Positions 9,261 to 63,048 of a DNA stretch of 64,000 bases are shown here, piece by piece (positions within the stretch are counted from its first letter, which is position 1; every line of letters begins with the position of its first letter). The notes under the pieces are model-generated. The model searched no databases, was not told the DNA's origin, and worked only from the letters and a program-made list of their open reading frames with translations. A program made the position numbers and the translations under genes. The DNA comes from Candidatus Pacebacteria bacterium UBA1364 (lineage in GTDB: Bacteria; Patescibacteriota; Microgenomatia; UBA1400; PJMF01), in contig DBRQ01000009.1 in assembly GCA_002306345.1 (NCBI GenBank), forward strand, positions 85,197-149,196. Reading direction: 5' to 3'.

Positions 9261-10961
9261 GTGCACAAACTCCATCGCCTGCAAACTAAATTTAGTGGGT
9301 TGCGCTATAAACTAATTAATGCACGAAAGGAGCCATCTGATCGACAGTTTTTAGTGAGACTAGCGATTTGCTCCATCTTTTTTTTAGCTTTTTGTTTGCG
9401 TTTTACTCACTTAAATTGGGATGAGGGTTATTATTATCATCCAGATGAACGTAATATTGCCGCCGCCATTAGTCGCCTCGAGTTACCACAACAAAACAAC
9501 CCCGAATTTTATGCTTACAATGGTTTTCCACTTTTTTTTCTGGATATTGTGTCACAAATTGTGAGTTATCTAACACATAATCCAGATTGGTTGACCGATT
9601 GGCCTAAAATTATTTTATTAACAAGAATATTTTCTGCTGCTTGCTCATTCATTAGTGTTCGGCTCTGTTATCGTATTGCTTTAAAGGTTTTTCGCCCAAA
9701 AATTGCCATTTTGACCACTTTTATCGCTGCTACTACCGTTGGCTTGATTCAATATGCTCACTATGGAGTAACAGAGAGCCTTTTAGTGATGGAAGTGCTT
9801 TTACTTAGTTTGTTATCGATGCAATTAATGGAAAATAAAAAGAAAATTAATTTATTCTGGTTGGCAGTTGTTTTTGGAGTAAGTGTAGGGACTAAAACTT
9901 CAGCTTTATCTTTTATTTTAATTCCAGCTTTAGCTATTTTGATGACCTATGGCTTACGTTGGCGCACTGTCTTAATGGGTATTTGCTGTTCACTTGTGGC
10001 GGCAGCAGTTTTTTATGGTGTTTCTCCCAACACTATCCAACATTTAGATAAATTTTTAGAATCAATGCGCTATGAGGGAGGGGTAGTTAGAGGCGAATTT
10101 TTAGTGCCGTATACCATGCAATTTATTGATACACCCATATATTTATTTCAAATTAAAAATCTGTTTTGGCAAACTTCAATTAGCACAATGTTATTGGCTT
10201 TTTTTGGTTTATTTTTACTTTTTAAAAATGGTAAAAAATATCGTTTGTTGCGGCCATTGTTACTCTATTCTTTTTTGTATTTTGTCTACGTTGGTTCTTG
10301 GCATGCTAAATTTATTCGTTATATGTTGCCAATTGTGCCAGCAATCATTTTTTTATCTGGCATTGCTCTCAATCAATTGACTCTTCAACTTAAAAAGCCT
10401 CGATTAAAGCAAACTTTAATTTTAATTGTTTGTGCAGTTAACGTTTTTTGGGCGTTAGCCTATGTGAAAGTTTTTATCAAACAATCCACTAGAATTACCG
10501 CTTCTAAATGGATGTATCAGTATATTCCTAATCAGAGCACTGTTTTAACTGAGCACTGGGATGATGGTTTACCCAGCATGTCAGAAGATGGTTTCTCGTT
10601 TAATCATTTGGAATTAAAGCTTTATGACTACGACGATCAAGCAAAAGTTCAAGAGTTAGCCGACACTTTGAGTCAAGGTGATTATTTGGTAATTTCTAGT
10701 CGTCGCTTAACTGGTTCGATTCCACGCAATCAGGCATTTCCTTACACAACAAAATATTATCAGTTGTTATTTAGTGGTGATCTAGGTTATGACCAAGTAG
10801 CTATTTTTACTTCGTACCCCAATTTTTTTGGTTTAAACATTAACGATGATTCAGCCGAAGAAACTTTTCAAGTTTATGATCATCCAGTGGTAAAAATTTT
10901 TAAAAATATTGGCCATTTTTCTAGCGGCAAAATTGAATCGTTGATTTTGAGTAGCAAGTAA
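9261..10961 (+). CDS. GT-C fold membrane glycosyltransferase-like protein (ArnT/PMT-like)
   Basis: 566-aa polytopic ORF with a GTG start. The first loop carries an acidic motif (WDEGYYYHPDERN). There are about 10 or more TM helices and a C-terminal soluble domain. Confidence 0.7.
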   Translation: MHKLHRLQTKFSGLRYKLINARKEPSDRQFLVRLAICSIFFLAFCLRFTHLNWDEGYYYHPDERNIAAAISRLELPQQNNPEFYAYNGFPLFFLDIVSQIVSYLTHNPDWLTDWPKIILLTRIFSAACSFISVRLCYRIALKVFRPKIAILTTFIAATTVGLIQYAHYGVTESLLVMEVLLLSLLSMQLMENKKKINLFWLAVVFGVSVGTKTSALSFILIPALAILMTYGLRWRTVLMGICCSLVAAAVFYGVSPNTIQHLDKFLESMRYEGGVVRGEFLVPYTMQFIDTPIYLFQIKNLFWQTSISTMLLAFFGLFLLFKNGKKYRLLRPLLLYSFLYFVYVGSWHAKFIRYMLPIVPAIIFLSGIALNQLTLQLKKPRLKQTLILIVCAVNVFWALAYVKVFIKQSTRITASKWMYQYIPNQSTVLTEHWDDGLPSMSEDGFSFNHLELKLYDYDDQAKVQELADTLSQGDYLVISSRRLTGSIPRNQAFPYTTKYYQLLFSGDLGYDQVAIFTSYPNFFGLNINDDSAEETFQVYDHPVVKIFKNIGHFSSGKIESLILSSK

Positions 10962-36177: not shown

Positions 36178-37566
36178 ATGTTAAATTTAGCAAAAAAGCT
36201 ATTTATTTCCGCAGAAGTTTGGCAAGGTGATAATAAAAGTAAAGCCTATTTTTTGAATTCTGTTAATTTTATTTTAGTTTCTTTTTTCTCACTTGTGCTT
36301 ATTATTCAATTTTCTAATGAAATATTTTTTGCTCATCCGGCTAATCAAAAAAATTTTCTTTCATTATTCTTTCTTATTGTTGCCTTGAGTTTAACAGGAT
36401 TTTTAATTAAAAAAGGTTCAATTCGTTTTGCTACTTTTTTAACAATTGGTTTAATATTGATTTTTTCTTTTGAGAATAGCTTTATTTTAGGCATTAATAC
36501 TTATGGTATTGATATCCTTTATTCATTGGCTATTTTAATTAGTGCTGTTTTAATTAATTTCAAATTTTCTTTTTTTATATTTTTGTTTATTTGTTTCGGT
36601 TTGTCTTTAATTTATTTTTTACAAAATGGCCATTCTTTTACAGATAATTTACTTTGGGAAAACTTTTCGTTTATTTTTGCCAATTTATTAACAATCTTTC
36701 TCTGCTTTATTTTAATTCTTTTTGTAGCCTGGTATTTTTCTAAAGAAACTGAAAAATTTTATAAAAGCAATAAAAAATTAAAACATAAATTAAAACTGCA
36801 AAATGATCATCTTGAAATAATTGTCAAAAATAGAACAAAAGAACTTGAAACCTTGCAACTAAAACAACTAATTAAAGTTGCTCCACTTTTAGATTTAGGT
36901 AAATTATCAATAGGGTTAGTTCATGATATTCGGGAATCTTTAGCAGTTTTAAGTATTGTTTTGCAAAATGCTCAGGAAGACAACAATGTTGTTTCCAATT
37001 TAGATAAGGCTTTTTTAGCTATAGATAGGATTGATGATCTTTCTAAGATGACTGTCTGCAAAATTTTTGATGAAGCAGAGACTGATGTTTTTAATTTAAA
37101 TCAAGAAATTGAGAAATTAATTAGCCTATTTGACTATAGGGCCAAGTTGAAAAGAATAAAAATTATTTTTAAACCAAACAAAGAATTTGAACTTTATTCA
37201 GATAAAAGTAAATTAAATCAAATTTTGTCTAATTTAATTTTAAATGCTTTAGAATCTTATGATAATTCTGATCAAAGTGATCGGTGTGTTTTTATTAAAT
37301 TGGTTAAAAAACCTAGAAACTTATTAATTATAGTTAAAGATTATGGAGTTGGGATTAGCAAAGAAAACTTGCCACACATTTTTGAACCAAAATTTTCTTC
37401 CAAAGATGAAAGACAATCTTTGGGGCTTGGTCTCTATGTTAGTCAAGAAGCAATGAGTAAAATATATGAGTCAAAAATAAAAGTGGAAAGTAAGGTCAAT
37501 TGTGGTTCGACTTTCACTGTTTTGATTAAGAATAAATTTATTATTAATGCATTGTCCAAAAAGTAA
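36178..37566 (+). CDS. Membrane sensor histidine kinase
   Basis: About 6 N-terminal TM helices and a coiled coil. H-box LVHDIRESL, N-box LSNLILNALES, G1 DYGVGI, G2 GLGLY. Confidence 0.88.
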   Translation: MLNLAKKLFISAEVWQGDNKSKAYFLNSVNFILVSFFSLVLIIQFSNEIFFAHPANQKNFLSLFFLIVALSLTGFLIKKGSIRFATFLTIGLILIFSFENSFILGINTYGIDILYSLAILISAVLINFKFSFFIFLFICFGLSLIYFLQNGHSFTDNLLWENFSFIFANLLTIFLCFILILFVAWYFSKETEKFYKSNKKLKHKLKLQNDHLEIIVKNRTKELETLQLKQLIKVAPLLDLGKLSIGLVHDIRESLAVLSIVLQNAQEDNNVVSNLDKAFLAIDRIDDLSKMTVCKIFDEAETDVFNLNQEIEKLISLFDYRAKLKRIKIIFKPNKEFELYSDKSKLNQILSNLILNALESYDNSDQSDRCVFIKLVKKPRNLLIIVKDYGVGISKENLPHIFEPKFSSKDERQSLGLGLYVSQEAMSKIYESKIKVESKVNCGSTFTVLIKNKFIINALSKK

Positions 37567-37590: not shown

Positions 37591-37677
37591 TCTTTTGCAT
37601 TTTTTTCTTTTGCATTTTGATATTTCTAATGCCTAATATTTCTAATACTTGCAATGATTTTTAATTTTTGTTAAATT
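37591..37677 (+). promoter_or_regulatory. Two pairs of direct repeats followed by a sigma70-like promoter
   Basis: TCTTTTGCATTTT at 37591-37603 and 37606-37618. ATATTTCTAAT at 37620-37630 and 37636-37646. Then TTGCAA (37649-54), a 17-nt spacer, and TAAATT (37672-77). Confidence 0.5.
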
Positions 37678-37682
37678 GAGTG

Positions 37683-37830
37683 TTGCTGTGGAATGTAGTG
37701 TAAATCTACAACTGTGCCGCAACGGTGATTCCTTTTAAGGATTAGTCCGGTCTTCAGCAAGAAAAATCTTGACGAGCATCGAGTTAAAGTTTGTTTTTAT
37801 ACATCGATGCTCCCTAAAGGGAGCTTTTTT
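37683..37830 (+). ncRNA. Candidate structured leader RNA (riboswitch-like/attenuator) or small RNA, class unknown
   Basis: P1 is UUGCUG(37683-88)/CAGCAA(37755-60) and encloses three hairpins at 37694-37710, 37715-37727 and 37728-37743. A 9-bp helix follows, GAGCAUCGA(37774-82)/UCGAUGCUC(37804-12). Its 3' arm overlaps the terminator stem. Confidence 0.55.
37809..37830 (+). terminator. Intrinsic terminator
   Basis: GCTCCC-TAAA-GGGAGC followed by TTTTTTGTTTT. Confidence 0.8.
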
Positions 37831-37903
37831 GTTTTAAGAGAGGCACAGCAATTATTTGTTAAGGCTTTAGAGTTATACTCTTTTAGGCCAAGAAAGGTTT
37901 ATC

Positions 37904-38614
37904 ATGGGAAAAGAAAACAGAAGTGCTGTGGAAATGGCGACGAGCATTGGTAGCGAACCAAGTCAACTGGATGAAAAATGGTCTTTGCTTGGCAAAATCA
38001 ATTTTACTAATATTTTAGAAAGTTTGGGTGAAGAACTTGATTTTGATCAATCAGAATGGCAAAGCATTCTTGCTCTCTCTGGTGTGTGGATGCTAAATAA
38101 TTTGGATAATCAAATTGTTGATTTAAAAAATAAGAAGGTGGAGCAAAACACAGCCGTTGAGTTAAGAAAAATGTTTGGTGTACCTTTATCTTTATTGGCG
38201 ATGCCCGTATTTATAGAATTAGAAAAAATGGAAGTTAATGCAAAAAAAGCTTTAAAAGAAGAAGCCGCCGCGACCGCACAAATTTTGGAGCAAATTAATA
38301 ATACATTGCTTTACATGGTTCAGCTTGTTTTAGCAGAGCAAATTAATTTGGTTGAAGAAGAGATTTCTGTTCATCAAGCGGCTTTAGATGCTTCTCAAAA
38401 AGAAGCAGAAGGAATGCCAGCTTTAGGAACAACAATGCAACATGTGGAAGGACAATTTAAAGAAAAAATGGAACAATTGCAAGAAAGAAAAAATCTTTTA
38501 ACTGATACTTTTTCTAAAGTAGGTGACAATTTAAAAAGTTCTATTGGAGAGGTTTTTGAAACCACTGTTTTTAGTGCGAAAGATCAGAGTCCAGTGGCAA
38601 ATGCTATCACTTAA
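37904..38614 (+). CDS. Hypothetical coiled-coil protein
   Basis: 236-aa ORF with GAAAGG 7 nt upstream of the ATG. No TM helix, no recognised motif, and helical heptad-like composition. Confidence 0.65.
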   Translation: MGKENRSAVEMATSIGSEPSQLDEKWSLLGKINFTNILESLGEELDFDQSEWQSILALSGVWMLNNLDNQIVDLKNKKVEQNTAVELRKMFGVPLSLLAMPVFIELEKMEVNAKKALKEEAAATAQILEQINNTLLYMVQLVLAEQINLVEEEISVHQAALDASQKEAEGMPALGTTMQHVEGQFKEKMEQLQERKNLLTDTFSKVGDNLKSSIGEVFETTVFSAKDQSPVANAIT

Positions 38615-38767: not shown

Positions 38768-39439
38768 ATGAAGAGGATATTAATTCTTGATAACGATTGG
38801 CTTATTTTATCTTCTTTGAGTAATTTTTTAAGAAAAAAAGGCCATTTGGTAAATTGCGCTCAATCCATTGCAAGAGCAGAAGATTTGTTAATCAAATATA
38901 AATTTGATTTATTTTTATGTGAGCGCATTTTGACAGATGGCGATGTTATAGATCTTTTAAAAAAAATTAAGGAAAAAAAACTTTTCATGAGAACTTTAGT
39001 TTTTAGCAACAAAAAATCTTTGGTGGATCGAATTACTGTTTTAAAATTAGCCAATGATTTTTTAGCTAAACCATTTAATTCCATTGAACTCTGTTTAAAG
39101 ATAGAAAATCTTTTGCATTTAGAAAAAATTGAAACCAGTGGTTTTATTGAAAATTCCCTTTTTTTGTTTAAAGATGCCAATGTTATTGAAGATCATAATC
39201 ATTTTCGCCCTCAAGAACTAAAAATTCTTGAGTGCCTCTTTCGACATAAAAACATAGTTGTTTCCTACGAAACGATTTCTGCTTATGTTTGGGGATATAA
39301 AGAACCGCTTCCTTTGAAAAAAACTATTAGTGTTTACGTTCGGAGAATTAGAACAAAACTTTTTTTGAAAAATTTAAAAATTATTACCATTAAAAACAGA
39401 GGTTATAAACTTATTGATTTAGAGGAAAATAGCATTTAA
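38768..39439 (+). CDS. OmpR/PhoB-family response regulator with Glu at the predicted phospho-acceptor position
   Basis: Receiver domain (ILILDND..., FDLFLCERILTDGD, FSN, KPF) plus a winged-helix output domain (VWGY...SVYVRRIRTKL...NRGYKL). Confidence 0.85.
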   Translation: MKRILILDNDWLILSSLSNFLRKKGHLVNCAQSIARAEDLLIKYKFDLFLCERILTDGDVIDLLKKIKEKKLFMRTLVFSNKKSLVDRITVLKLANDFLAKPFNSIELCLKIENLLHLEKIETSGFIENSLFLFKDANVIEDHNHFRPQELKILECLFRHKNIVVSYETISAYVWGYKEPLPLKKTISVYVRRIRTKLFLKNLKIITIKNRGYKLIDLEENSI

Positions 39440-39881
39440 TTGTAGTGCCTTTATTTTTTTGAGAAATTATTTTAATATGACCGTTGAAGAATTTTTTAAT
39501 GGCTTGATTGGTCTGATAAATATTTAGATTTGTTTGATCTTCTTTAAAAATAAAAGCAATTTGTGTGATCAATTTCTTTTGCAAAAAAGAGAGCCCTTTA
39601 CCACCATGGGTGACGCTGATGGACAGTTCTTTCTCATTTTCAATTTGGCTAGTAATTAAAATTATTCTATTTGTTAAACTATCTTGGTAAGCTTTGCTGG
39701 CATTATTGATTAAATGAAAAAGTATTTCTTGAAAAAGAGCTTTATTGCCGCATAATTCCAATTCGCTTGGTATGTTTGTTTTAAAACTATAAATGAAATT
39801 TTTTTGACTCAAAGCGCTTAGTTGTTTGACTTCTCTAGTGGCAGCATTAACAAGAAATTTTTTCTTTTTAATTTGATTCAT
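39411..39881 (-). CDS. Stand-alone histidine-kinase-like ATPase (CA) domain protein, degenerate
   Basis: 156 aa with an N-box-like HLINNASKAY and a degenerate G1 (THGGKG). There is no DHp/H-box and no TM helix. It is the last gene of the minus-strand glycosylation operon. Confidence 0.6.
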   Translation of the reverse strand: MNQIKKKKFLVNAATREVKQLSALSQKNFIYSFKTNIPSELELCGNKALFQEILFHLINNASKAYQDSLTNRIILITSQIENEKELSISVTHGGKGLSFLQKKLITQIAFIFKEDQTNLNIYQTNQAIKKFFNGHIKIISQKNKGTTIKCYFPLNQ

Positions 39882-39926: not shown

Positions 39927-41420
39927 TCACTCTTCTATTTTCCACACTTGCAAGCAGGGCGCTTGATTGATTCGACAAAAACTTGCCAAAAGTTGAGATG
40001 TTGGCAAATCCATTTCAAGTCGATGAGAATTAACCACTAGCAATTTAAGATCAAATCCTTGAGCTTTCTGCCAAAAACTTGAAGGAATTTCTCGAATTGG
40101 TTGACCAATACCTTCCACATAAATGTTGTCGACATTTTGATTGTGTAAATTAAGTAAAATACCATCGGGCAAGGTGCCAAAATAACCTTCAGTGGCGACA
40201 GCCACTCTTTGTGTTTGAGCGAATTTTTCAATCATTTCGCTAATTTCTTTAATACCGTGGCCAGAAGACCATTCTTCTAGGAATTGTTCACGATCGATTT
40301 TACTGAGTTGCAATTGATCAACATTAAAATAAGCATTTTTGATAAAGAGCAAATAGGGCAAGATGATTAACAAAAGAGCTAAAGATTGAATGATTTTTTT
40401 ATTACGCAGGTTATGTAATGAAATGGCGGCCGAACTCAAAAAAAATAAACTACTGCTCAAAATGTAGCGAGGATAAATAATCTTGCCAAGTAAAACAAGA
40501 GGTAAAATAAAAACTATTGCTGAGCAAAATAAAATACTTTGTTTGCGACGAGTTTTTTTAAAAGCTGGTAAGGCTAAAACGAGCACAACTGGGCCTAAAT
40601 AAGTCATCAATTGTTCCATAAAAAATTTGGTATTTCTTATTATGACTGGCCAAATTGCTGTTGAAAAAATGACTGATTTATCTTGTAAAAAATTACCGCC
40701 GACCGCAAACAATTGGCTAAATAAAGGTTCATTCTTAAAACTGGCAAGAGCCAAACCGGCTAGAATTAGGCCCAAACTGATTTTTAAAGCTTTATTTATG
40801 AATAACTGCAGATTTAATTTTTCTGCAAAAAAAATGGCCAAGTAAAAAACAGGAATAAAAAGTAAAGCCGGAGTTTTACTCATAATTGCCAGAAAGAAAA
40901 ACAAAGCTAAACCTAAAACTGGCCAAAAACTTTTATTTTTTACAATTAAAAGCACGAAATAATAAGAGACAGTTAAATTGGCAAAAAGCAGTGCATCGGT
41001 GATGGCTAAACGATTGTGAAAAAAAATAAATGGATTAATGATAGCTAAAAACATAGCTATATAAGCTGCTTTTTTTTCATGGAGCTTTTTTAAAATTAGA
41101 AAAATAAAAGAAACATTCATTGCGCCAGCCAATACTGAAACTAATCTAGCGGCGAAAAGTTGATCAGTAAAAAGACGCAAAAATGGCACCGTCAACCACA
41201 TTAACAGTGGCGTTTTACCATCATTCATTGGGTAAAAAAGGTAACGTGAAAAATCATCAATAATGAGTTGAGACCAACGAATATAGATTGCTTCATCAGC
41301 AAAAACAGGCAGTGTGGTTAAGTTAAAAAGATGTAAGACAAAATATAAAACTAAAAGAGCCAAAAAACAAAGCAAGCTTTTATTTTTCACGTCTTCTATT
41401 AAATAGGAAGATAGCCCCAC
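39927..41420 (-). CDS. GT-C membrane glycosyltransferase (ArnT/PMT_2-like)
   Basis: 497-aa polytopic ORF with first-loop motif PVFADEAIYIRWSQ and a C-terminal soluble domain. Confidence 0.78.
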   Translation of the reverse strand: MGLSSYLIEDVKNKSLLCFLALLVLYFVLHLFNLTTLPVFADEAIYIRWSQLIIDDFSRYLFYPMNDGKTPLLMWLTVPFLRLFTDQLFAARLVSVLAGAMNVSFIFLILKKLHEKKAAYIAMFLAIINPFIFFHNRLAITDALLFANLTVSYYFVLLIVKNKSFWPVLGLALFFFLAIMSKTPALLFIPVFYLAIFFAEKLNLQLFINKALKISLGLILAGLALASFKNEPLFSQLFAVGGNFLQDKSVIFSTAIWPVIIRNTKFFMEQLMTYLGPVVLVLALPAFKKTRRKQSILFCSAIVFILPLVLLGKIIYPRYILSSSLFFLSSAAISLHNLRNKKIIQSLALLLIILPYLLFIKNAYFNVDQLQLSKIDREQFLEEWSSGHGIKEISEMIEKFAQTQRVAVATEGYFGTLPDGILLNLHNQNVDNIYVEGIGQPIREIPSSFWQKAQGFDLKLLVVNSHRLEMDLPTSQLLASFCRINQAPCLQVWKIEE

Positions 41421-43390: not shown

Positions 43391-44929
43391 TTAATTATAA
43401 CTTTGTAAGACAGTGATTTCTGGGCCATTTTCTATTTGGAAAACTTCCTTAATATTTTTATTTGGAAAAACCACAATTTCGTAAATTAAAGAATCTAAAA
43501 CATTTTTTTCTGTTTTTTCTTCATTGATAATGAAAAGCTTGCTAGCTGATTGATGATCTTCAATTTTAACCGGTTCATTTTCATTAGTACTCAAAAAGTA
43601 TCGATAATTCATGCCATAAAGGTCTTTGCTTGCTGACAACAAAACAATGTTATATTTTTCGTTTTTATCCACTCTTTGATAAATTGCTTGGCTGGTCTTA
43701 ATCATGTCATCCATCGTCCAACTACTATCTGCTAGAGTATATCTTTTGCTATTGTTGACGATAAAATAAATTAAAAATGGTACCAACAAAATTAACATTA
43801 GCCATTTATTTTTAAATTTAGCAAAGAATAAACCGTAAAAGATATAAACAAAAGGAAAAAGATAGGCAATGTAATGTTCATAAACTTGGTGTTGATAAAA
43901 GCTGATGCCGATTATTCCTGATACTAGATAGGCTAGTAAAACAATTTCACTAGCTTTAAGTTTTTTTCTATTTTTAACCAGATAAATAACGGTTACGATT
44001 AAAGTAAAGAATAGCATTGGGTGGTTATTTTTATTAACTCCAAAACTTGGTTCGAAAAGGACTTGAGAGGCACGATCTTTTAGATCAATACTGATAAATT
44101 TGGTAATGGCAGATAAACCTTTTCTGTCAGCTTTTCTCTCTAGATTAAAACTTTCTTTTTCAGTCAAAATTGAAGTAAAAGATCGGTAGTTAATAAAGTC
44201 GTGTTTAAAATCGAAAAGGATGAGGGGTGTGAGAGAGAGAAAAAAAATGATGACAGCCAATAAAATATTGCTGATAAATTTTCTTTCTTTTTTAAAAAAA
44301 TTTTTCTTTTGTAATTTAATTTTTGCAATTAATTGTATTAGAAAAATTAAAAAAGCCCCTAAAAATGATAGCAAAGTAACGTAATGTAATTGAATCAAAA
44401 TAGCAAAACAAAGTGAAACAGCAAGCCAATATTTGCTATTTTTTTGCCAAGATAGATAGGTAAAATAAAACATCAATAAACTAAAAAATGGTGCGATGTT
44501 GGGATTCCAACTAAAACGAGCCAAATTAACTACGGCAGCGGATAGAGTAAAAAATATGGTGGCTAAATAGGCAGTTTTTTGGTCAAAAATTTTTTTACTG
44601 ATTTGAAACAACAAAAAAACAGTTAACACGGACAAACCGGCTACAGCATAAACTGGACCCATTGGATTGGGATAAGAGAGAAACAAGAAGGGCAACATAA
44701 AATAATAATAAAATGGTCCCAAATACATGTTGCCAATGCTGGTGACTGGGCCAATAAAAACGGGGTCTTTGTCCTTAAAAATTTGTGAAACTATTAAAGC
44801 GTCTCTACCTTGATCACCTTGGAACATAAAAGAATTCCTCAGGTTGTAGAAACGTAAATAAATAGCTAAAAGTAAAATTAAAAATAAAAACACATCTTGA
44901 GTTTTTATTTTTTTAATCAGAGAAAGCAT
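43391..44929 (-). CDS. GT-C membrane glycosyltransferase (ArnT/PMT_2-like)
   Basis: 512-aa polytopic ORF with first-loop acidic motif FQGDQGRDALIV and a C-terminal soluble domain. Confidence 0.72.
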   Translation of the reverse strand: MLSLIKKIKTQDVFLFLILLLAIYLRFYNLRNSFMFQGDQGRDALIVSQIFKDKDPVFIGPVTSIGNMYLGPFYYYFMLPFLFLSYPNPMGPVYAVAGLSVLTVFLLFQISKKIFDQKTAYLATIFFTLSAAVVNLARFSWNPNIAPFFSLLMFYFTYLSWQKNSKYWLAVSLCFAILIQLHYVTLLSFLGAFLIFLIQLIAKIKLQKKNFFKKERKFISNILLAVIIFFLSLTPLILFDFKHDFINYRSFTSILTEKESFNLERKADRKGLSAITKFISIDLKDRASQVLFEPSFGVNKNNHPMLFFTLIVTVIYLVKNRKKLKASEIVLLAYLVSGIIGISFYQHQVYEHYIAYLFPFVYIFYGLFFAKFKNKWLMLILLVPFLIYFIVNNSKRYTLADSSWTMDDMIKTSQAIYQRVDKNEKYNIVLLSASKDLYGMNYRYFLSTNENEPVKIEDHQSASKLFIINEEKTEKNVLDSLIYEIVVFPNKNIKEVFQIENGPEITVLQSYN

Positions 44930-54892: not shown

Positions 54893-56550
54893 AAAAAATA
54901 GCGCTATTTTTGGCGATCGCATTCTTAATGCTTTTTTTACGTTTTTTTCATTTTAATCAGTCTCCGCCTAGTCCATATTGGGAAGAAGTGGCGCTTGCTT
55001 ATGATGCTTACAGTATTTCTCAAACTGCGAAAGATCATCATGGTAATTTTTTGCCACGAGTGGCTTTCGAATCCTTTGGTGATTTCAAGCCAAGTCTTTA
55101 TTTTTACTTGGCTGTGCCTTTTATTAAAGTCTTTGGTTTAAATGTTTTTGCCATTCGATTGCCCACTGTTTTATCTTCCATAGCTATTATTTTTGGGATT
55201 GCTTTTTTGGCTAAAAATTTATTTCAATATTTTTATTTGAAAAACGATCCAAAAGCGGCCAATTTTATTTTTTACCTGGCTTTATTTTTGGCTAGTTTAT
55301 CGCCTTGGTTATTAACTTTTTCTAGATCGGCTTGGGAAAGCACTTTGGCAACAGCCCTGATTCTTTGGGGTTGTAATTTTTGGTTGTATTTTATGGTTAA
55401 GAATAAAAGCAAGTGGGCGATTTTGGCAGTTATTTTTTTAGTTCTCTCAACTTATGCTTATCACGCGGCTAGAATTACCGCCCCTTTGCTTGGTTTAGCT
55501 TTAGTTTTAGCTTATCTAAAAAAAAAGACTTTCTTTGCTCTAAAAAAATCACTGAATTTGCCAGCTTTGTTTACCGCTATTTTGTTAGCTATATATCTTT
55601 TTTGGCCAATTGGTCAATCTTTATTTGAAAAAACTGGTCAGCAGCGTATTGCCGAAACAAGTATTTTTTCTGATATCTCTATTATTGAAAAAAGCAACGA
55701 ATTGAAAGCCAAACACAATAATTCTTTATTTTCTAGAATTGTTTATCATCGTTATCTTCTTTTTAGCAAAGAAGCAGCGGGAAATTTTTTGGATCATTTT
55801 AATTTTACTTACTTATTTGTTAGTGGCGATCATAATCCAAGGCACAGTATCCAAACTTTTGGTGAATTTTATTATCTTGACGCGCTGTTTTTTGTAGCGG
55901 CTTTAGTTTTTTTCTTCCGTCATAGAAATCGTCTTACTTACTTTTTGTTTTTTTGGTTATTCGTGGCAATTTTGCCAGCTGCTTTCACTCAAGCTACGCC
56001 TCATGCTTTAAGAACTTTAGCGGCTTTACCGATTTTATTAATTTTTTTGAGTTTTGGGGTGTGGCAATTTTTACAAGTTTTTAAAAATCTCAAACAAAAA
56101 AAATTCGCTTTATTATCAATTGTTGTTGTTTATTTATTTTTTGCGACTACATTTTTTTATCAATTAATTTACATTTATCCAAATCAGTACAGAAGCGAAT
56201 GGCAGTTTGGTTATGAAGAAATGATTCAAAAATTATTGTTAATAAAAAATAATTATGAAAAAATTTATGTGACTAGAGAACAGGGTAGACCGGCCATGTA
56301 TTATTTTTTTTATGCGCAAGTTGACCCAAAATTAGTCCAAGCTTTTGACCAACAAGCGAAAAAAGATCAAGGTGAATTTTTAAATTTTGCGAATATTGAA
56401 TTTATAGATAAAAGTGATCAAGTTGATGGAACTAAAAAAAGTTTAATTATTAGCTCGCCAGATTTTTACAAACGTTTTTTTGCGGAGCAAAATTTTGCTA
56501 TTATCGATGAAACTGAAAACCAAACTTGGGTATTTTATGAAAATAAATAA
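54889..56550 (+). CDS. GT-C membrane glycosyltransferase (ArnT/PMT_2-like), tandem paralog 1
   Basis: LRFFHF..SPPSPYWEEVALAYDAYSI, IRLP, GDHNPRHS and TPHALR motifs shared with the next two genes. Confidence 0.8.
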   Translation: MKKIALFLAIAFLMLFLRFFHFNQSPPSPYWEEVALAYDAYSISQTAKDHHGNFLPRVAFESFGDFKPSLYFYLAVPFIKVFGLNVFAIRLPTVLSSIAIIFGIAFLAKNLFQYFYLKNDPKAANFIFYLALFLASLSPWLLTFSRSAWESTLATALILWGCNFWLYFMVKNKSKWAILAVIFLVLSTYAYHAARITAPLLGLALVLAYLKKKTFFALKKSLNLPALFTAILLAIYLFWPIGQSLFEKTGQQRIAETSIFSDISIIEKSNELKAKHNNSLFSRIVYHRYLLFSKEAAGNFLDHFNFTYLFVSGDHNPRHSIQTFGEFYYLDALFFVAALVFFFRHRNRLTYFLFFWLFVAILPAAFTQATPHALRTLAALPILLIFLSFGVWQFLQVFKNLKQKKFALLSIVVVYLFFATTFFYQLIYIYPNQYRSEWQFGYEEMIQKLLLIKNNYEKIYVTREQGRPAMYYFFYAQVDPKLVQAFDQQAKKDQGEFLNFANIEFIDKSDQVDGTKKSLIISSPDFYKRFFAEQNFAIIDETENQTWVFYENK

Positions 56551-58075
56551 AATTTTATTGCTTTTGATATTTTTTTTAGGTTTGTCCTTGCGCTTTTTTC
56601 ATTTAGGTCAAATTCCGGCAATTCTTAATCGAGATGAGGCGGCTTTGGCTTATAATGCGCACTTAATTGCAACAAGTGGTCAAGATGAATGGCAAGTATC
56701 TTGGCCCTTAACTTTCAAATCTTTTGGGGATTATAAATTGCCTGGTTACCCTTATTTATTAGCGTTTTTATTTAAGTTTTTACCAGAAAATGATTTTGTC
56801 ACTCGTTTGCCTTCTGCTTTAGCAGGTAGTTGCTTGATCATTGTAGCTTTTTTCTTTGCTAGAGATATTTTGAAAGTTAAAGAGCGATCGGCCTTATTAA
56901 TGGCTTTACTGGTAGCCATTACTCCAGTTTTTTTCTTTTATTCACGGATTGCTTTTGAGGCGAACGTAGCTTTATTTTTATTTGTTTTGGGGTTGTATTT
57001 TCTTTTAAAAGATAAAGCAAATTTTGTTTTGGCTAGTAGCTTAATTTTTTTAGCAATTTTAACTTACAACACTCCTTTATTATTGCTGCCATTTATTATT
57101 TTTATTTTGATTTATAAAATTGGTTTTAAAAAAATCAAACAGTGGCTAGGACCAGTTTTTTTATTATCGATAATTTTTCTTTGGGCTATCATTAATTTTT
57201 ACACACTTGCTACACAAAAAAGCACGATTACTATTTTTGGTGATCCGGGAGTTTGGGAGCAATTTGCGCTGTATCGGTCTAATTTGTCAGGATTTTGGCA
57301 AACAATTTTTGGTAATAAATACGTTTTTTACTTACAAATTTTATGGCAAAATTTACTCAAAAGTTTTTCTATTAAATTTTTAGTAGAACAAGGAGGTAGC
57401 CATCCTTGGCACGCTTTACCCTCTTTTGGGCATCTTTTTTACAGTGTTTATTTTTTAGCGATTTTTATGTTAATTGACTTTTTTGGAGAAATTGTCATTG
57501 CGTTGCAAGATGGTTCTTTTAATAAAAAGCATTTGATTTTGCTCTATTTAACCATTGTGGCTTTGGCGCCATCCGTGGTGACAGTAGATAGTCCACACGC
57601 TACACGAAGTTTATTTTTCTTTTTTATGTTGATTGCTTTATGCACAATGTTTATTGACAAACTTTGTCGTATTTTATCTAAAAAAAGTAAATGGTTTATA
57701 GTTTTTTTCCTAAGTCTTCTAACTATAGAAAGTTTTATTTATTACCAAAATTATTTTCTGCAATACCCCAAACATCAACCAGAAAGTCTTTTTGTTGATT
57801 ATAAAAATTTAATTCAAGAGGCTAGAAGCCAATACAATGATGAACCAGTGGCAGTAATTGATCCCGGAGGATATCAATACATTATCACTGCTTGGTATTT
57901 AAAACTAACAAATGAGCAATTTTTCGCTACAATGCAGTATCAAAGCGCTGATAACATTAATTTTTATTATGGTGAAAGGCTGTTGAATTATCATTTTATT
58001 AAAAATTTAGCAGATAAAAATGAGAAAGAGAAAATTGTTCTTTCTCAAGAATCAGGATTAGTTAAATATGAATAA
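56537..58075 (+). CDS. GT-C membrane glycosyltransferase (ArnT/PMT_2-like), tandem paralog 2
   Basis: LRFFHLGQIPAILNRDEAALAYNAHLI, TRLP and SPHATR motifs. ATG 56537 overlaps the end of the upstream gene (stop codon 56548-56550). Confidence 0.8.
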   Translation: MKINKILLLLIFFLGLSLRFFHLGQIPAILNRDEAALAYNAHLIATSGQDEWQVSWPLTFKSFGDYKLPGYPYLLAFLFKFLPENDFVTRLPSALAGSCLIIVAFFFARDILKVKERSALLMALLVAITPVFFFYSRIAFEANVALFLFVLGLYFLLKDKANFVLASSLIFLAILTYNTPLLLLPFIIFILIYKIGFKKIKQWLGPVFLLSIIFLWAIINFYTLATQKSTITIFGDPGVWEQFALYRSNLSGFWQTIFGNKYVFYLQILWQNLLKSFSIKFLVEQGGSHPWHALPSFGHLFYSVYFLAIFMLIDFFGEIVIALQDGSFNKKHLILLYLTIVALAPSVVTVDSPHATRSLFFFFMLIALCTMFIDKLCRILSKKSKWFIVFFLSLLTIESFIYYQNYFLQYPKHQPESLFVDYKNLIQEARSQYNDEPVAVIDPGGYQYIITAWYLKLTNEQFFATMQYQSADNINFYYGERLLNYHFIKNLADKNEKEKIVLSQESGLVKYE

Positions 58076-59717
58076 GAAAAAAGAAATTATTTTTTTAATA
58101 ATAATACTCGCCATAGCCTTTTTTTTGCGTTTTTTTCAACTAGGCAGTAATCCTGCTGCTTTATATTGGGATGAGGCAGCCATTGCTTTGGATGCTTACA
58201 GTATTGCGACTACGGGCAAGGACATGAATAACCAATTTTTCATGCAGCCAGTTTTAGGTTCTTATGGAGATTTTAAAGCGCCAGTGCTGATTTGGTTAGC
58301 AGTTCCATCAGTATATTTATTTGGCATGACGCCTTTTGCCATTCGTTTGCCCGTGGCCTTATTTTCTATTCTCAGTATTTATTTGGCTTATTTATTATTG
58401 AAAGAACTACTTACTTTTGACGGTCAACTGGCCAAGCGCTACAAATTTATGCCGCTTTTATTAGCGCTAATCATGGCAATTTCTCCCTGGACAGTTCATT
58501 TTGGCCGCATTGGTTTTGAATCCAGTCTTTCGGTAGCCTTTTTGCTTTTAGCTTTGTTGTTTTTTCTTAAAGCCTTAAAAAATAAAGGTCACTACTTTTT
58601 ATTGAGTGCTTTTTTTGCCAGCATAGCGGTTTATTCATATTATTCTTTGCGTATTGTTCTGCCTTTGTTTTACTTAGCTTTAGTGATCATCTTTTTTAAA
58701 GAAATTAAAAAGAATCACCTTTGGCGTAAATTAATTTTGGCCCTTTGCTTATTTGCTGTTACCATGATTCCTATTCTCAGTTCGCCTTACTATGCGAGGA
58801 GTCAGGATTATCGTCTCAATAATGATAATTTAATTCATCACCAAAAAGTAATTGAAGAATCAAGTAAATATTTGGAAAGATATAATTCCAATTTGTATTC
58901 AAGAGTGGTTTATCACCGCTACGTATTTGTAGTCCGAGATTTTTTAAGCAACATGGCCGCTCATTTTAGTAACGACTTTTTGTTTTTTAAAGGAGACAAT
59001 AATTTACGCCAACACTCTGGTTATTTTGGCGAATTTTTATTAGTTAGTTTGCCTTTTTATTATTTGGGATTGTTTTTACTTTTTAAAAATTACAAAAGTA
59101 AATTATCGGCTTTTTTAGTAGTTTTTATGGTTTTATCACCGATTCCTGCAGCCATGGTTTATGAAGTCCCACATGCTTCTCGAGCAATTTATTTATTTGT
59201 GCCTTTTTCAATATTGATTGCTTGGGGAATCAATCAATTTATACTTTTTGGTAAAAAAATTGCCATTTTTATTACTGCGGGTTTATTTTTAATTAATGCC
59301 ATTTTTTATTATAGTGATTATTTTATTGAATATCCAAAAAGATCCAGTGAGGCGTGGCTCTATAGTTACAATCAAGTAGCTATATATATTAAGGAGCACT
59401 ATCAAGAGTTTTCTAAAATAGAAATCGATGAACGTTATTGGCTACCTAGAATTTTTGTTTATTACCAATTTCCGCAATTGTTGGATCAAACTAGAGAGCT
59501 CAAAAATGCCCTACTCAATAATCCAATCAATAGTTTTGGTTTGGCTGATCCTTTTGCTTATCTTTTAGATCAAAATGATCTCGGTAAGAAGCAGGCTAAA
59601 TTTATTTATTATAAAGATGAAATTCCCACCGGTTTTTATGCGGTCAAAAATTTTGATTTCTTAAATGGTGAAAAAAGTTTAGTTTTAGTTGTCAAAGACG
59701 GTCAAAAAAGTAATTGA
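58068..59717 (+). CDS. GT-C membrane glycosyltransferase (ArnT/PMT_2-like), tandem paralog 3
   Basis: LRFFQLGSNPAALYWDEAAIALDAYSI, IRLP, GDNNLRQHS and VPHASR motifs. 8-nt overlap with the upstream gene. Confidence 0.8.
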   Translation: MNKKKEIIFLIIILAIAFFLRFFQLGSNPAALYWDEAAIALDAYSIATTGKDMNNQFFMQPVLGSYGDFKAPVLIWLAVPSVYLFGMTPFAIRLPVALFSILSIYLAYLLLKELLTFDGQLAKRYKFMPLLLALIMAISPWTVHFGRIGFESSLSVAFLLLALLFFLKALKNKGHYFLLSAFFASIAVYSYYSLRIVLPLFYLALVIIFFKEIKKNHLWRKLILALCLFAVTMIPILSSPYYARSQDYRLNNDNLIHHQKVIEESSKYLERYNSNLYSRVVYHRYVFVVRDFLSNMAAHFSNDFLFFKGDNNLRQHSGYFGEFLLVSLPFYYLGLFLLFKNYKSKLSAFLVVFMVLSPIPAAMVYEVPHASRAIYLFVPFSILIAWGINQFILFGKKIAIFITAGLFLINAIFYYSDYFIEYPKRSSEAWLYSYNQVAIYIKEHYQEFSKIEIDERYWLPRIFVYYQFPQLLDQTRELKNALLNNPINSFGLADPFAYLLDQNDLGKKQAKFIYYKDEIPTGFYAVKNFDFLNGEKSLVLVVKDGQKSN

Positions 59718-59720
59718 TTT

Positions 59721-61364
59721 ATGAAAATGAAAAAATTTTTTGCCTTGGTTTTTTTCTCTTTATTAACTCTTATTAGTTGTCATTATTTTTTCCACCCCGG
59801 GGTACCAGTTACTCATGATGGCAATAATCATTTAGTGCGTTTTGCCAATTACAAAATAGCGTTGCGCGAATTACAAATTCCGCCTCGTTTGGCTCCAAAT
59901 TTGTTAAATGGCTATGGTTATCCGGTCTTTAATTATAATTATCCATTGGCTAATATTTTATCCCTCCCTTTTTCTATTCTTAATTTCCATTATGAGACAA
60001 CTTTTAAAATAATTATTAGCCTCTCTGTTTTTTTTGCTTTTGTCGGGGCAAATTTATTTTTAAAAAGTAAAAAATTTAAAAGAAATGCCAGAATTTTTTC
60101 CTTGCTTGTTTTTGCCCTCAATCCTTATATTTTTACTAGCATTATTTTTCGAGGTAATATTGGAGAAATAATGGCTTGGAGTATTTTACCTTGGATTTTT
60201 TATTTCATAGAAAAAATTAAAACAAGCCAGGTTTTGCTTGAAAAAAATTTGCTTTTTTTAACTATTTCTTTAAGTCTTTTACTTTTAGCACACAACGTAA
60301 CTGCACTTTTTGCTTGCATTTTAATCGGTTTTTATTTGTTATTTAATTTCGGGCGCAATTGGTCAGCTTGGAAAAAATTTATTGTCAGTTTTATTTGGGC
60401 TTTTGCCATTGCTTTATGGTTTTGGTTGCCAGCAATGCTCGAAAAAAATTTAGTGACATTAGACGACGTTGATTTGACTCTCAATTATTACAAACATTTT
60501 CCAACGCTTAGTCAATTAATTCGTTTGCCCATTTCTTTTGGCTATTCTTATTGGGGCAGTATTGACTCAATGTCTTTTGGTTTGGGAGCTTTGCAATTAA
60601 TTTTAATTTTTTTATCTTTATTTTATTTGTTTAAAAACAAAGCCAAAGACAATCTTGTTTTTATTCTTGCCCTTTTTATTTTAATTTTAGGTCAATTGCC
60701 CATTACTAAACCACTTTATGATTTTTTACCGTTCGTTAAATTTATTCAGTTTCCTTGGCGCTTGACACTGTTAATTTCCATAGTTTTATTGCCCATTAGC
60801 GCTCTTATTTTTGAAAACGCTAAAAAATATTGGAAAATTTTGCTCGTTATTTTGACTTTTTTGCAATTATTACAATTTATTAAAACTGAGCCTATAGATT
60901 ATCGGCATAAAGATGAAATTGATTATGATGCCAGTAGTGAAACCACCTCAGTAAATCAAGAAAATATGCCAAAAAGCTTTACTTTTGCTTTTTTTGAGAC
61001 AAAACAAGAGCCAGTTTTTATTTTAAAAGGAGCTGGTCAAGTGACTGTTAAAGATTTTTTTGGCTCTTATCGTCACTACTTGTTGCAGTTGGAAGAAAAA
61101 TCAATTGTTGTTGAATCAACCGCCTTTTTTCCAGGTTGGCAAAGTAAAGTTAATGGTCAGAAAATTAATTATTTAGATAATGAAGAAATCAAAGGGCGGA
61201 TTGCCTACGAATTAGAAGCTGGTCAATATGAAGTTAGTACACGCTTTACTCAACAAACTTGGCCTAGGATAGTTGGCAACAGTGTTAGCGCTTTCGCTTT
61301 ATTGCTTTTACTTTTTGTAAGTTTTGATTTTTGGCAAAAGGATAGAAAAAATAAAAAACAGTGA
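59721..61364 (+). CDS. Polytopic membrane protein, second GT-C-like family, with C-terminal extracytoplasmic domain and TM anchor
   Basis: 547 aa with THDGNNHLVRFANY, GYGYPVFNYNYPL, FIQFPWRL and FPGWQSKVNGQK motifs, then a terminal TM helix and KDRKNKKQ tail. Confidence 0.72.
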   Translation: MKMKKFFALVFFSLLTLISCHYFFHPGVPVTHDGNNHLVRFANYKIALRELQIPPRLAPNLLNGYGYPVFNYNYPLANILSLPFSILNFHYETTFKIIISLSVFFAFVGANLFLKSKKFKRNARIFSLLVFALNPYIFTSIIFRGNIGEIMAWSILPWIFYFIEKIKTSQVLLEKNLLFLTISLSLLLLAHNVTALFACILIGFYLLFNFGRNWSAWKKFIVSFIWAFAIALWFWLPAMLEKNLVTLDDVDLTLNYYKHFPTLSQLIRLPISFGYSYWGSIDSMSFGLGALQLILIFLSLFYLFKNKAKDNLVFILALFILILGQLPITKPLYDFLPFVKFIQFPWRLTLLISIVLLPISALIFENAKKYWKILLVILTFLQLLQFIKTEPIDYRHKDEIDYDASSETTSVNQENMPKSFTFAFFETKQEPVFILKGAGQVTVKDFFGSYRHYLLQLEEKSIVVESTAFFPGWQSKVNGQKINYLDNEEIKGRIAYELEAGQYEVSTRFTQQTWPRIVGNSVSAFALLLLLFVSFDFWQKDRKNKKQ

Positions 61365-63048
61365 TAAACAGAGCAACCAGAGAGAGACTGTCGCCAATTT
61401 TTCTGGCAGTAGTGTTTTCACTTAAATAAATACCCACTTGGTGATGACCGGCAGGCACGCTAATTTGAATGTTTCCTAAACTGCTATTTGTTTGAATATC
61501 TTGTTTTTGGCCATCAATTTCAGCTTGCCAGCCAGCAAAATTGGCTACTTTGAAATTGACAAGCTCAGCTTCCCTTAATTCAAGACTGATTAATTTTTCG
61601 AAACTATGATCAACAATTGTTTCTAATTTATCTATTTCTTGGCCACTGGCTAGCCACACTGCAGGTAATTCTTGATTACTTTTTAATAAAATTGTTTGCT
61701 CTGCCATTTGCTTTGGAATGTAGTCAGGCAAAATGGCGCTCATTTCATTTTGAATTCTTTCCGCATCAGTGTAATAAAGAGCGTCTTGCTCATCTAAATA
61801 TTTTTCTGGTTTAAAATAAGTTGCATTAAAAAGTAAAACAAATAATATAAAAAGTCCGTATAAACCGCGTTGCTGCCGATTTTTAATCAAGTAAGCTGAA
61901 ATTGCCAAGAGAATAGCGATGAAAAAAACCGCTACAGAGAGAAAACGCCAAGGAAATTGAATAAATTGTAAAATTGCTAAATTATCCCAAATAAATTGAC
62001 TCTTCATCAAACTCATAAAAAGAGCAAACAAAGTAAAAAAACCAAAAAGCAAAATTAAAAAGAACAAATGACTTTTGCGAAATTTTTTGAAATTTTTATA
62101 TAAATGAAAAGCACAAAAAAGGCCCAAACATAAAAGTCCCAATAATTGGCCTTTACCCAAGAAAAAAGAAATCCCATCGTCAGGACCCCAAACTGAGCCC
62201 TCATATTGCCAGCGATCTTGGAAAAATTGTCTAATGTAAAGAAAATGATTCGAATAATGAAAATAACCGGAAAAAATTGTATTAATGACGGTTAAATCTT
62301 TTTCCAGCAGAGCAGGAACAACGTAAAAAGCTGACGCCGCGCCGGCCAACAAAAATTGTGCAGCTAAAGGCCATAGTAACTTCATTTTTTTCTGATGCAG
62401 CAAGTAAATAAAAGTAAAGACAGCAGCGAGAGGAATAAAAATTAAAGCAGTTAAATTATGGGAAAGAAGAATGGCAAATAAAGAAATAAACAAAATAAAT
62501 AAGTATTTTTTTCTTTGTTCTTTAGTGAAGGCAATGATGGCGAAAAGGACCAAAGGCAAAAAAGCCATGGCAAAAGTTTCACTCAAAGCTTCTCTGACAA
62601 AAAGATTGACGCTACGATATGGCGCTAATGTGTAAGCAGCAGCGAGTAATAAACCGCCCCATCTACCCAGTAATTTTCTGCCCAAAAAGTAGGCTCCAAG
62701 TAAAGTGATAGCGTTTACTAATAAATATAAAATTTTTATACTAGTAACCACACTGCAACCAAGCTTGCAAAAAATAGCCCCAATGAAATAAGGCAGAGGA
62801 GCATAAAAATTAAAAAGCGGCATCCCAAATCCATAACCGAAATTACCACTCCAGCGAACTGGGAATTGTCCTTCATCAAGAGCCCTCGACATTTCGGCAA
62901 TTCTACTGGCATGAGTGAAATCATGGCCGCGAAAAAAACTTTCGTGGAGAACTGAGTAACTGCTGGCCAGAAAAATGAAGAATAAAAAAATCACTACAAA
63001 ATAACTTTTGAGAAAAGAGAATAGTTGATGTAAAAATTTATTTAGCAT
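61285..63048 (-). CDS. Paralog of 59721-61364 (same polytopic family), convergent
   Basis: 587 aa with GHDFTHASRIAEM, GYGFGMPLFNFYAPL, FIQFPWRF and FAGWQAEIDGQK motifs, then a terminal TM helix and KVKAIKRKR tail. Confidence 0.72.
   Translation of the reverse strand: MLNKFLHQLFSFLKSYFVVIFLFFIFLASSYSVLHESFFRGHDFTHASRIAEMSRALDEGQFPVRWSGNFGYGFGMPLFNFYAPLPYFIGAIFCKLGCSVVTSIKILYLLVNAITLLGAYFLGRKLLGRWGGLLLAAAYTLAPYRSVNLFVREALSETFAMAFLPLVLFAIIAFTKEQRKKYLFILFISLFAILLSHNLTALIFIPLAAVFTFIYLLHQKKMKLLWPLAAQFLLAGAASAFYVVPALLEKDLTVINTIFSGYFHYSNHFLYIRQFFQDRWQYEGSVWGPDDGISFFLGKGQLLGLLCLGLFCAFHLYKNFKKFRKSHLFFLILLFGFFTLFALFMSLMKSQFIWDNLAILQFIQFPWRFLSVAVFFIAILLAISAYLIKNRQQRGLYGLFILFVLLFNATYFKPEKYLDEQDALYYTDAERIQNEMSAILPDYIPKQMAEQTILLKSNQELPAVWLASGQEIDKLETIVDHSFEKLISLELREAELVNFKVANFAGWQAEIDGQKQDIQTNSSLGNIQISVPAGHHQVGIYLSENTTARKIGDSLSLVALFITVFYFFYPFAKNQNLQKVKAIKRKR

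Follow-up and report, generated by a model that had tools for sequence, protein, structure and literature searches.

The 64,000-nucleotide stretch of DNA analyzed here (the window) comes from contig DBRQ01000009.1 of Candidatus Pacebacteria bacterium UBA1364, and all positions are counted from its first letter. The element of interest is a leader RNA on the forward strand (37683-37830) that precedes a gene for a 236-amino-acid (236-aa) protein. An earlier description, made without database searches and referred to below as the sequence-only reading, had treated the leader as an unclassified structured RNA. The results presented here indicated that the leader is very probably a class II cobalamin (vitamin B12/corrinoid) riboswitch that represses the 236-aa gene lying downstream of it by terminating transcription prematurely, as judged from its covariance-model match and from comparison with homologous leaders. 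The promoter, the aptamer and its parts, and the regulated gene, all on the + strand, are as follows.

37649-37677, +: promoter, with a -35 element TTGCAA (37649-54), a 17-nt spacer, and a -10 element TAAATT (37672-77) extended by TGn (37669-71).
37683-37760, +: cobalamin aptamer of class II architecture, assigned from the RF01482 match (58.1 bits) and covariation.
37683-88 (UUGCUG) with 37755-60 (CAGCAA), +: closing helix P1/P3, assigned from sequence and compensation.
UGGAA, +: J1/3, assigned from sequence.
37694-98 with 37706-10, +: hairpin P4/L4 with the loop UGUAAAU, assigned from the RF01482 alignment and covariation.
37713-14 with 37720-21, +: P5, with L5 (UGCCG) at 37715-19, assigned from the RF01482 alignment.
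37723-25 with 37747-49, +: P6, with an extension hairpin at 37728-42, assigned from the RF01482 alignment and covariation.
37744-52, +: B12-box-like sequence AGUCCGGUC, assigned from the RF01482 alignment.
37761-37767, +: J1/13 linker GAAAAAU, 7 nt and A-rich.
37904-38614, +: regulated gene, encoding a 236-aa protein that is predicted to be all helical and has the conserved core ELRKMFGVPLSLLAMPVFVELEKME.

The whole window was scanned with cmscan against Rfam 15. The best-scoring Rfam family for the leader was RF01482 (the adenosylcobalamin, or AdoCbl, cobalamin riboswitch; clan CL00101), which we take to be equivalent to class Cbl-IIb. The match spanned positions 37663-37798 on the + strand and scored 58.1 bits (E 4.5e-8) against a curated gathering score of 50, and by this covariance-model score the leader is a member of the cobalamin riboswitch family. 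In the RF01482 alignment, the closing helix corresponded to the inner part of the model P1/P3, the first enclosed hairpin to P4/L4, the second to P5/L5, and the third to P6 plus a short extension. The conserved core of cobalamin riboswitches was also aligned; specifically, the L4 loop, the GCCACUG-like J5/6, and the B12 box (AGUCxGG) in J6/3 corresponded to GUGUAAAUC, GCCGCAACGG, and AGUCCGGUC, respectively.

The closing helix and the three hairpins that it encloses (37694-37710, 37713-37721, and 37723-37749) had been drawn correctly in the sequence-only reading, and its proposal of a riboswitch leader with a four-way-junction aptamer was borne out by the RF01482 match and by helices with compensatory changes. 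Its statement that the leader matched no B12 riboswitch was not borne out, because RF01482 was matched above the gathering score and homologous leaders matched RF01482 or a second cobalamin family, RF01689. That reading had itself stated that an Rfam cmscan hit to a known family would mean that the element was known and not novel, and since such a hit was obtained above the cut-off, the element is known. Thus, the suggestion of a new, unclassified riboswitch class with another ligand is barely credible. It drew on a consensus that could not be matched by eye, on an L5 that reads UGCCG instead of the usual UCCCG, and on some divergent homologs that scored below the RF01482 cut-off (34-44 bits), but it is already refuted by the cmscan match, the core motifs of the leader align, most homologs scored above the RF01482 or RF01689 cut-off, and the kissing-loop logic described below is typical of the cobalamin family.

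Class II cobalamin riboswitches are defined by the absence of a P2 loop-stem-loop between P1 and P3 and by a simple stem-loop on P6 (PMC7367189). The leader has no P2 arm and no P7-P11 extension, its J1/3 is UGGAA(U), and its P6 bears one 15-nt hairpin, all of which place it in class Cbl-II. Within this class, Cbl-IIb riboswitches have a short or paired J1/3 and a short P6 hairpin and are AdoCbl selective, whereas Cbl-IIa riboswitches have a bulged J1/3 and a loop on P6 and are selective for methylcobalamin or hydroxocobalamin, and selectivity cannot be predicted from sequence (PMC7367189). For the leader, Cbl-IIb was favored by its short P6 hairpin and by RF01482 being its top-scoring family, yet close homologs scored best with RF01689.

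As a single sequence, the leader folded only modestly better than shuffled sequences (176-nt fold, z = -2.0; 6 of 200 shuffles folded at least as well), so the case for function rests on comparison with relatives. We fetched 27 loci that encode members of the 236-aa protein family, and 24 of them keep part or all of the aptamer (individual loci are given below by L numbers). In all 24 leaders examined, the same aptamer was located directly upstream of the homolog of the 236-aa open reading frame (ORF), including loci whose protein shares as little as about 23% identity with the window ORF. Nineteen of the 24 leaders passed the RF01482 or RF01689 gathering score; the homologs reached 50-59 bits with RF01482 or 45-46 bits with RF01689 (against 36.5), and L002, L020, and L022 were the leaders that scored best with RF01689. 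Four complete, more divergent leaders were below the RF01482 cut-off (34.1-43.5 bits), and the incomplete L008 leader scored 48.2 bits.

A 22-leader alignment was then used to examine covariation. The proposed pairs were kept in 97.2% of pairing cells, compared to 91.3% in shuffles (0 of 500 reached the observed value) and 27-45% when the partners were slid. Ten pairs had changed on both sides, a number that was also reached by none of 500 shuffles. Compensatory pairs were found at four of the five positions of hairpin 1 and two of the three positions of the P6 extension, and the closing helix was compensated in L024 (ACUAC/GUAGU, five pairs) and L026 (AAGCUG/CAGUUU). In the case of L024, MAFFT misaligned the 3' strand of the closing helix, and the helix was read and aligned by hand. 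The check for compensatory changes among homologs, which the sequence-only reading had put forward, therefore came out in favor of the closing helix, hairpin 1, the P6 extension, and P13 (see below). In these alignments, the aptamer helices and P13 are supported by covariation.

The TTGCAA-17-TAAATT promoter described earlier was present as proposed. Its score was below the threshold of a consensus scan; in 19 of 21 homologous leaders, the pattern TTGnnn-17-TGnTAnnnT was kept 11-12 nt ahead of GGAA. Because the promoter is kept at a fixed distance, transcription probably starts at about 37682-85, which are the first bases of the closing helix.

The expression platform, which follows the aptamer on the + strand, contains the following features.

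37768-37783, +: stem-loop P13/L13, in which P13 pairs CUUGA (37768-72) with UCGAG (37779-83) and L13 is CGAGCA (37773-78).
U37715-A37778, G37716-C37777, C37717-G37776, C37718-G37774, and G37719-C37773: proposed L5-L13 kissing pairs with A37775 bulged, assigned from complementarity.
37774-37812, +: putative antiterminator, in which GAGCAUCGA (37774-82) pairs with UCGAUGCUC (37804-12) around a variable loop (37783-37803).
37809-37830, +: predicted intrinsic terminator, with GCUCCC (37809-14), the loop UAAA, GGGAGC (37819-24), and U6 (37825-30), reported by a terminator scan.

The sequence AUCUUGACGAGCAUCGAG was invariant among the leaders and forms a 5-bp P13 stem that closes a CGAGCA loop. P13 pairs in 99% of cells and was compensated in four ways: AUCGA/UCGAU (L024), CUCAA/UUGAG (L026), CUUGA/UCAAG (L025), and CUUGA/UCAGG (L027). 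L13 and L5 were identical in all loci while the P13 stem varied. Moreover, CGAGCA was the sole site with complementarity to L5 (five Watson-Crick pairs) that was found in every locus, and the chance of this for a random 6-nt loop was about 0.001. In characterized cobalamin riboswitches, the L5 consensus is UCCCG (PMC10327014), the kissing loops always hold at least one unpaired nucleotide, L13 must sit in a stem-loop, and the J1/13 linker of wild-type env8 is 7 nt (PMC5028336). The J1/13 of the window has the same length; it is somewhat longer in most relatives and much longer in L024. Since covariation, the invariant loop complementary to L5, the 7-nt linker, and the published kissing-loop features agree, we assigned the stem-loop at 37768-83 as P13/L13. 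This assignment was made by our analysis and not by the Rfam model. From the complementarity of the two loops, we infer a kissing-loop pairing between L5 and L13.

Two other partners for L5 were examined and rejected. One was the position given to L13 by the Rfam model, within the large loop that the 9-bp antiterminator helix encloses; a GGC complementary to L5 was present at this site in the L004 group alone, and the loop was not conserved otherwise. A post-terminator CCACGGC could pair with L5 (GCCG/CGGC), but complementarity is lost in the variants UAGU (L022), CACAGC (window, L015, and L027), and CAUGGC (L021). These three variants still pair with GCUGUGG in the 5' strand of the aptamer.

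The sequence-only reading had also described the 9-bp helix at 37774-82/37804-12, the GCUCCC-UAAA-GGGAGC-U6 terminator, and their mutual exclusion, and each of these was found as it had described, with GCUC common to the 3' arm of the antiterminator and the 5' arm of the terminator. The terminator has 6 bp (5 G-C), a 4-nt loop, and a U6 tract, and it is thus predicted from its sequence to be Rho independent. It was kept with U5-U9 in 19 of 21 leaders and was absent from L025 and L026, and every one of the 19 terminator-bearing leaders had an antiterminator of 7-10 bp. The 5' arm of this antiterminator consists of L13 plus the 3' side of P13, and a G>A/C>U change in L027 was compensated in both P13 and the antiterminator. 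In the window, the antiterminator was the minimum-energy structure (-17.0 kcal/mol), and P13 plus the terminator was 3.3 kcal/mol less stable (-13.7 kcal/mol); the corresponding difference in other loci was 0.2-6 kcal/mol. In these folding models, the energy gap is of a size that a ligand-stabilized tertiary contact could close.

A side effect of the terminator was seen in the databases. Entries for the protein family (P0003, P0038, and others, as well as the window ORF 37807-37953) carry spurious N-terminal extensions that start with MLPK, and these arose when gene callers started at an AUG inside the antiterminator/terminator (AUGCUCCCUAAA). The presence of MLPK extensions across entries indicates that the terminator sequence is conserved.

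In the mechanism that we propose, transcription would begin at about 37682-85 and the aptamer would fold cotranscriptionally. When a corrinoid is bound, L5 would kiss L13 and stabilize the weak 5-bp P13. With P13 held, GAGCAUCGA would be occupied, GCUCCC would be left to pair with GGGAGC, and polymerase would stop in the U6 tract to yield a transcript of about 148 nt, with the gene off. When no ligand is bound, P13 would be too weak to last, and L13 and the 3' side of P13 would pair with 37804-12 to form the 9-bp antiterminator, which would block the terminator and allow the 236-aa gene to be transcribed. Because the kissing loop plus P13 excludes the antiterminator and the antiterminator excludes the terminator, bound B12 should terminate transcription and turn the gene off. 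We infer the direction of switching (off with ligand) and the form of the ligand. A P13/antiterminator/terminator scheme of this kind was shown by mutagenesis in the Priestia megaterium metE riboswitch (PMC10327014).

Several observations weigh against this view of the leader. Covariation gives no support to the kissing loop, because L5 and L13 were invariant, and the Rfam model aligned its own, much longer P13 to the poorly pairing positions 37771-95. The terminator and antiterminator were conserved in sequence with one compensatory change (L027), and the case for their pairing is therefore mainly one of conservation. The aptamer and P13/L13 are kept in L025 and L026, which lack the GCUCCC/GGGAGC terminator; a run of U5-6 starts 3 nt past P13 in both (about 1180-1215 in L025 and about 1445-1480 in L026). 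Judging from these two sequences, part of the family must use another read-out. Finally, no corrinoid-dependent enzyme or Btu transporter was recognized among the 55 ORFs of at least 110 aa in the 64-kb window. As the search covered the window, this result does not imply that B12 enzymes or transporters are absent from the genome.

The lack of covariation in the kissing loop was also relevant to a different platform, in which the aptamer binds cobalamin but competition between P1 and a CAAGA/UCUUG hairpin decides between the antiterminator and terminator and no kissing loop is formed. The sequence-only reading had favored such a coupling through the 3' strand of P1, re-paired as CAAGA-AAAA-UCUUG (37758-71). 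This hairpin is present in the window, but it is not conserved and cannot form in L008, L016, L017, L018, L021, and L022, where UCUUGACGAGCAUCGAG stays invariant. Moreover, UCUUG is the 5' side of the covarying P13, so P13/L13 takes the place of the hairpin, and the scheme offers no path from the hairpin to the antiterminator. We therefore consider this alternative highly improbable, and the L5-L13 mechanism is retained below.

Comparison with known systems showed both likenesses and differences. Like RF01482 riboswitches, the leader has no P2 between P1 and P3 and a short P6-extension hairpin; the L4 loop, GCC(G/A)C-AC(G/U)G, and AGUC-GG motifs align, and the consensus RF01482 L13 (CGAGGcA) is close to CGAGCA. 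In contrast to RF01482, the closing helix of the window is only 5-6 bp and is predicted to start at the 5' end of the transcript, L5 is UGCCG and not UCCCG, and P13 has 5 bp (vs about 12 bp) and leads into a separate antiterminator and terminator instead of directly into Us. The family RF01689 (AdoCbl-II, also AdoCbl-variant; env8HyCbl, class Cbl-IIa) shares the compact core, a 7-nt J1/13, and, if the proposed kissing loop forms, unpaired nucleotides in L13 (PMC5028336). However, env8 acts by translational control with the ribosome-binding site in L13, whereas L13 of the window is without a ribosome-binding site and the predicted read-out is an intrinsic terminator; the kissing-loop bulge also differs, with one A in the pairing proposed for the window and two purines plus an A-G pair in env8.

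The closest parallel in platform logic was the P. megaterium metE riboswitch of Kennedy et al. (PMC10327014), in which the kissing loop stabilizes P13, as shown there by mutagenesis and deduced here. In both, P13 is weaker than the antiterminator and is separated from the terminator by a variable structured insert. The aptamer sequence, host, and downstream gene all differ; in addition, metE has five contiguous kissing pairs, whereas the window has five proposed pairs with a bulged A and an L13 that is itself part of the antiterminator. The leader is thus a well-known kind of element, unusual only in its candidate phyla radiation host and in its constant pairing with one small uncharacterized protein family.

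Downstream of the terminator, two further features were identified on the + strand.

37843-37853, +: post-terminator motif M1, GCACAGCAAUU, complementary to the 5' side of the aptamer at 37682-90 (GUUGCUGUG; 9 bp, -13.2 kcal/mol).
37863-37897, +: hairpin (37863-89) directly 5' of the Shine-Dalgarno sequence AAGAAAGG (37890-97), with the ATG at 37904, assigned from sequence.

M1 reads ACCACGGCU in most relatives and lies 8-19 nt past the U tract. Its complement comprises the closing-helix 5' strand and J1/3, and the pairing was in register in 19-20 of 21 loci. When duplexes were compared with shuffles using RNAduplex, 1 of 300 shuffles did as well for the window and 0-5 of 300 for most loci, and the duplexes of the other loci ranged from -10.5 to -16.3 kcal/mol. 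These observations raise the possibility of dual or mainly posttranscriptional control, in which, in read-through mRNA free of ligand, M1 would pair with the aptamer's 5' side and set translation or mRNA stability, and in which this pairing would be the sole read-out in relatives without a terminator. Consistent with such control, all changes in M1 preserved pairing (G-C/G-U and U-A/U-G, affecting three positions), the motif was kept and stronger (9 bp) in the terminator-less L025 and L026, and the long-range helix between M1 and the aptamer was in the minimum-energy fold of eight full-length leaders. On the other hand, the 5' strand was invariant, so all of the variation was one-sided, and the motif was weak in L002 and absent from L024, whose 5' strand differs. 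Predicted accessibility of the Shine-Dalgarno sequence also showed no consistent direction between free and aptamer-folded leaders; it went from 0.68 to 0.05 in L007, from 0.28 to 0.60 in the window, and was unchanged in many loci. We regard control through M1 as possible but somewhat unlikely. M1 could serve as a translational layer, as a lock on the read-through mRNA, or in protection of the 5' end.

A hairpin of unrelated sequence abutted the Shine-Dalgarno sequence in nearly all leaders (L003, L005, L019-L022, and L024-L027), with only its position and structure kept. This hairpin may be an insulator or an mRNA-stabilizing element. We also observed that two 9-mers from the leader, GCUGUGGAA of the aptamer 5' strand and GACGAGCAU of the P13/L13 region, reappear near the start of the ORF, within its first 45 nt (37924-37932 and 37939-37947), where they encode the conserved AVEMAxSIG motif. 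The repeats were not conserved in other loci and are probably a coincidence.

The 236-aa protein has no signal peptide and no transmembrane helix. Grouped at 90% identity, its family forms 41 clusters, and at 50% identity it has 28 representatives; none of them carries a Pfam domain or a name. An AlphaFold2 model built from a 20-sequence alignment had a predicted local distance difference test (pLDDT) score of 87 and consisted of three long helices (62-91, 100-168, and 172-226) preceded by four short ones at the N terminus, with the most conserved segment of the family, FGVPLSLLAMPVF, placed at the first turn. No significant fold or sequence relatives were found in Pfam, NCBIfam, PHROGs, PADLOC, a PDB sequence profile search, Foldseek searches of PDB and BFVD, or, beyond the family itself, in two large homolog searches and a profile search. 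The top Foldseek matches in PDB were the pore-forming toxins AhlC, ClyA, YaxB, XaxB, and MakE, at E values of 0.05 or worse, template modeling (TM) scores of 0.3-0.47, and a root mean square deviation of about 10 Å. Long helical bundles commonly yield ClyA-like fold matches. The protein resembles the ClyA family (AhlC, ClyA, YaxB/XaxB, and MakE) in its long three-helix bundle and in the short hydrophobic FGVPLSLLAMPVF at the turn; however, the matches were insignificant, no sequence or profile similarity was detected, and no partner-component genes were adjacent. Thus, the protein does not show the significant fold or sequence similarity by which a ClyA-family alpha-pore-forming toxin is recognized.

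In the window and its closer relatives, a tRNA gene on the opposite strand is located directly downstream of the 236-aa gene (tRNA-Gln in the window), and the transcription unit is therefore a single gene. The flanking genes encode a histidine kinase (36178-37566, +), an OmpR-type response regulator (38768-39439, +), and a short HATPase_c protein (39411-39881, -). In the eut loci of Enterococcus and Listeria, RF01482 riboswitches govern the RNAs EutX and Rli55, which sequester a response regulator. It is conceivable that the terminated RNA of about 148 nt likewise acts, also or mainly, in trans as a small RNA, because RF01482 was the best family for the leader and the histidine kinase and OmpR-type regulator flank the element, and a kinase or regulator neighborhood recurs in L018-L021 and in one contig for which no DNA was available. 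However, the neighborhood differs in L022, L025, and L026, the regulator does not belong to the ANTAR type, hairpins resembling ANTAR targets were not observed, and a conserved protein gene with its own Shine-Dalgarno sequence follows the leader in every locus. A trans-acting role is therefore quite improbable, and control of the adjacent 236-aa gene remains our preferred reading.

The gene content of the window fits Microgenomates, with many GT-C/PMT_2 glycosyltransferases, an LCP protein, DUF3048, PFL plus its activase, and an ADP-forming acetyl-CoA synthetase. Locus L004 (CP011212.1) belongs to the Microgenomates order UBA1400, family PJMF01 (PMC7143001). The title of that entry, "candidate division TM6 bacterium GW2011_GWF2_28_16," would point to a TM6/Dependentiae lineage, which was overruled by PMC7143001 and by gene content. 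Other relatives are titled Parcubacteria, Saccharibacteria, or Pseudomonadales, and such titles of metagenome-assembled genomes are unreliable. Much of the window is devoted to cell envelope glycosylation: six paralogous GT-C (PMT_2) membrane glycosyltransferases were observed (9261-10961, 39927-41420, 43391-44929, 56480-59717, and 61285-63048), and GT2, GtrA, LCP, and nucleotide-sugar genes were also present.

As a riboswitch, the element is nothing categorically new, and it appears to work like the P. megaterium metE element. Its regulatory logic says only that the 236-aa protein would be wanted when B12 is scarce. The finding of the aptamer at one uncharacterized gene family in 24 of 24 leaders is nevertheless strong guilt-by-association for a B12-related role. 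Our literature search found no paper that links cobalamin riboswitches with the candidate phyla radiation. One speculative proposal, which we consider unlikely as a whole, is that the riboswitch marks the 236-aa family, found only with this riboswitch, as a previously unrecognized B12-linked function in candidate phyla radiation bacteria. The protein would be a corrinoid-capture factor, or a membrane-inserting, ClyA-like factor made under B12 starvation to take the cofactor from a host cell, and the leader may add a second layer through pairing of the post-terminator strand with the 5' side of the aptamer in the read-through mRNA. The conserved post-terminator complement of the aptamer 5' strand provides a starting point for experiments on the handling of read-through transcripts. 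The value of the element lies in its role as a pointer to a putatively B12-linked protein family in an ultra-small lineage that depends on a host and whose cofactor economy is little understood.

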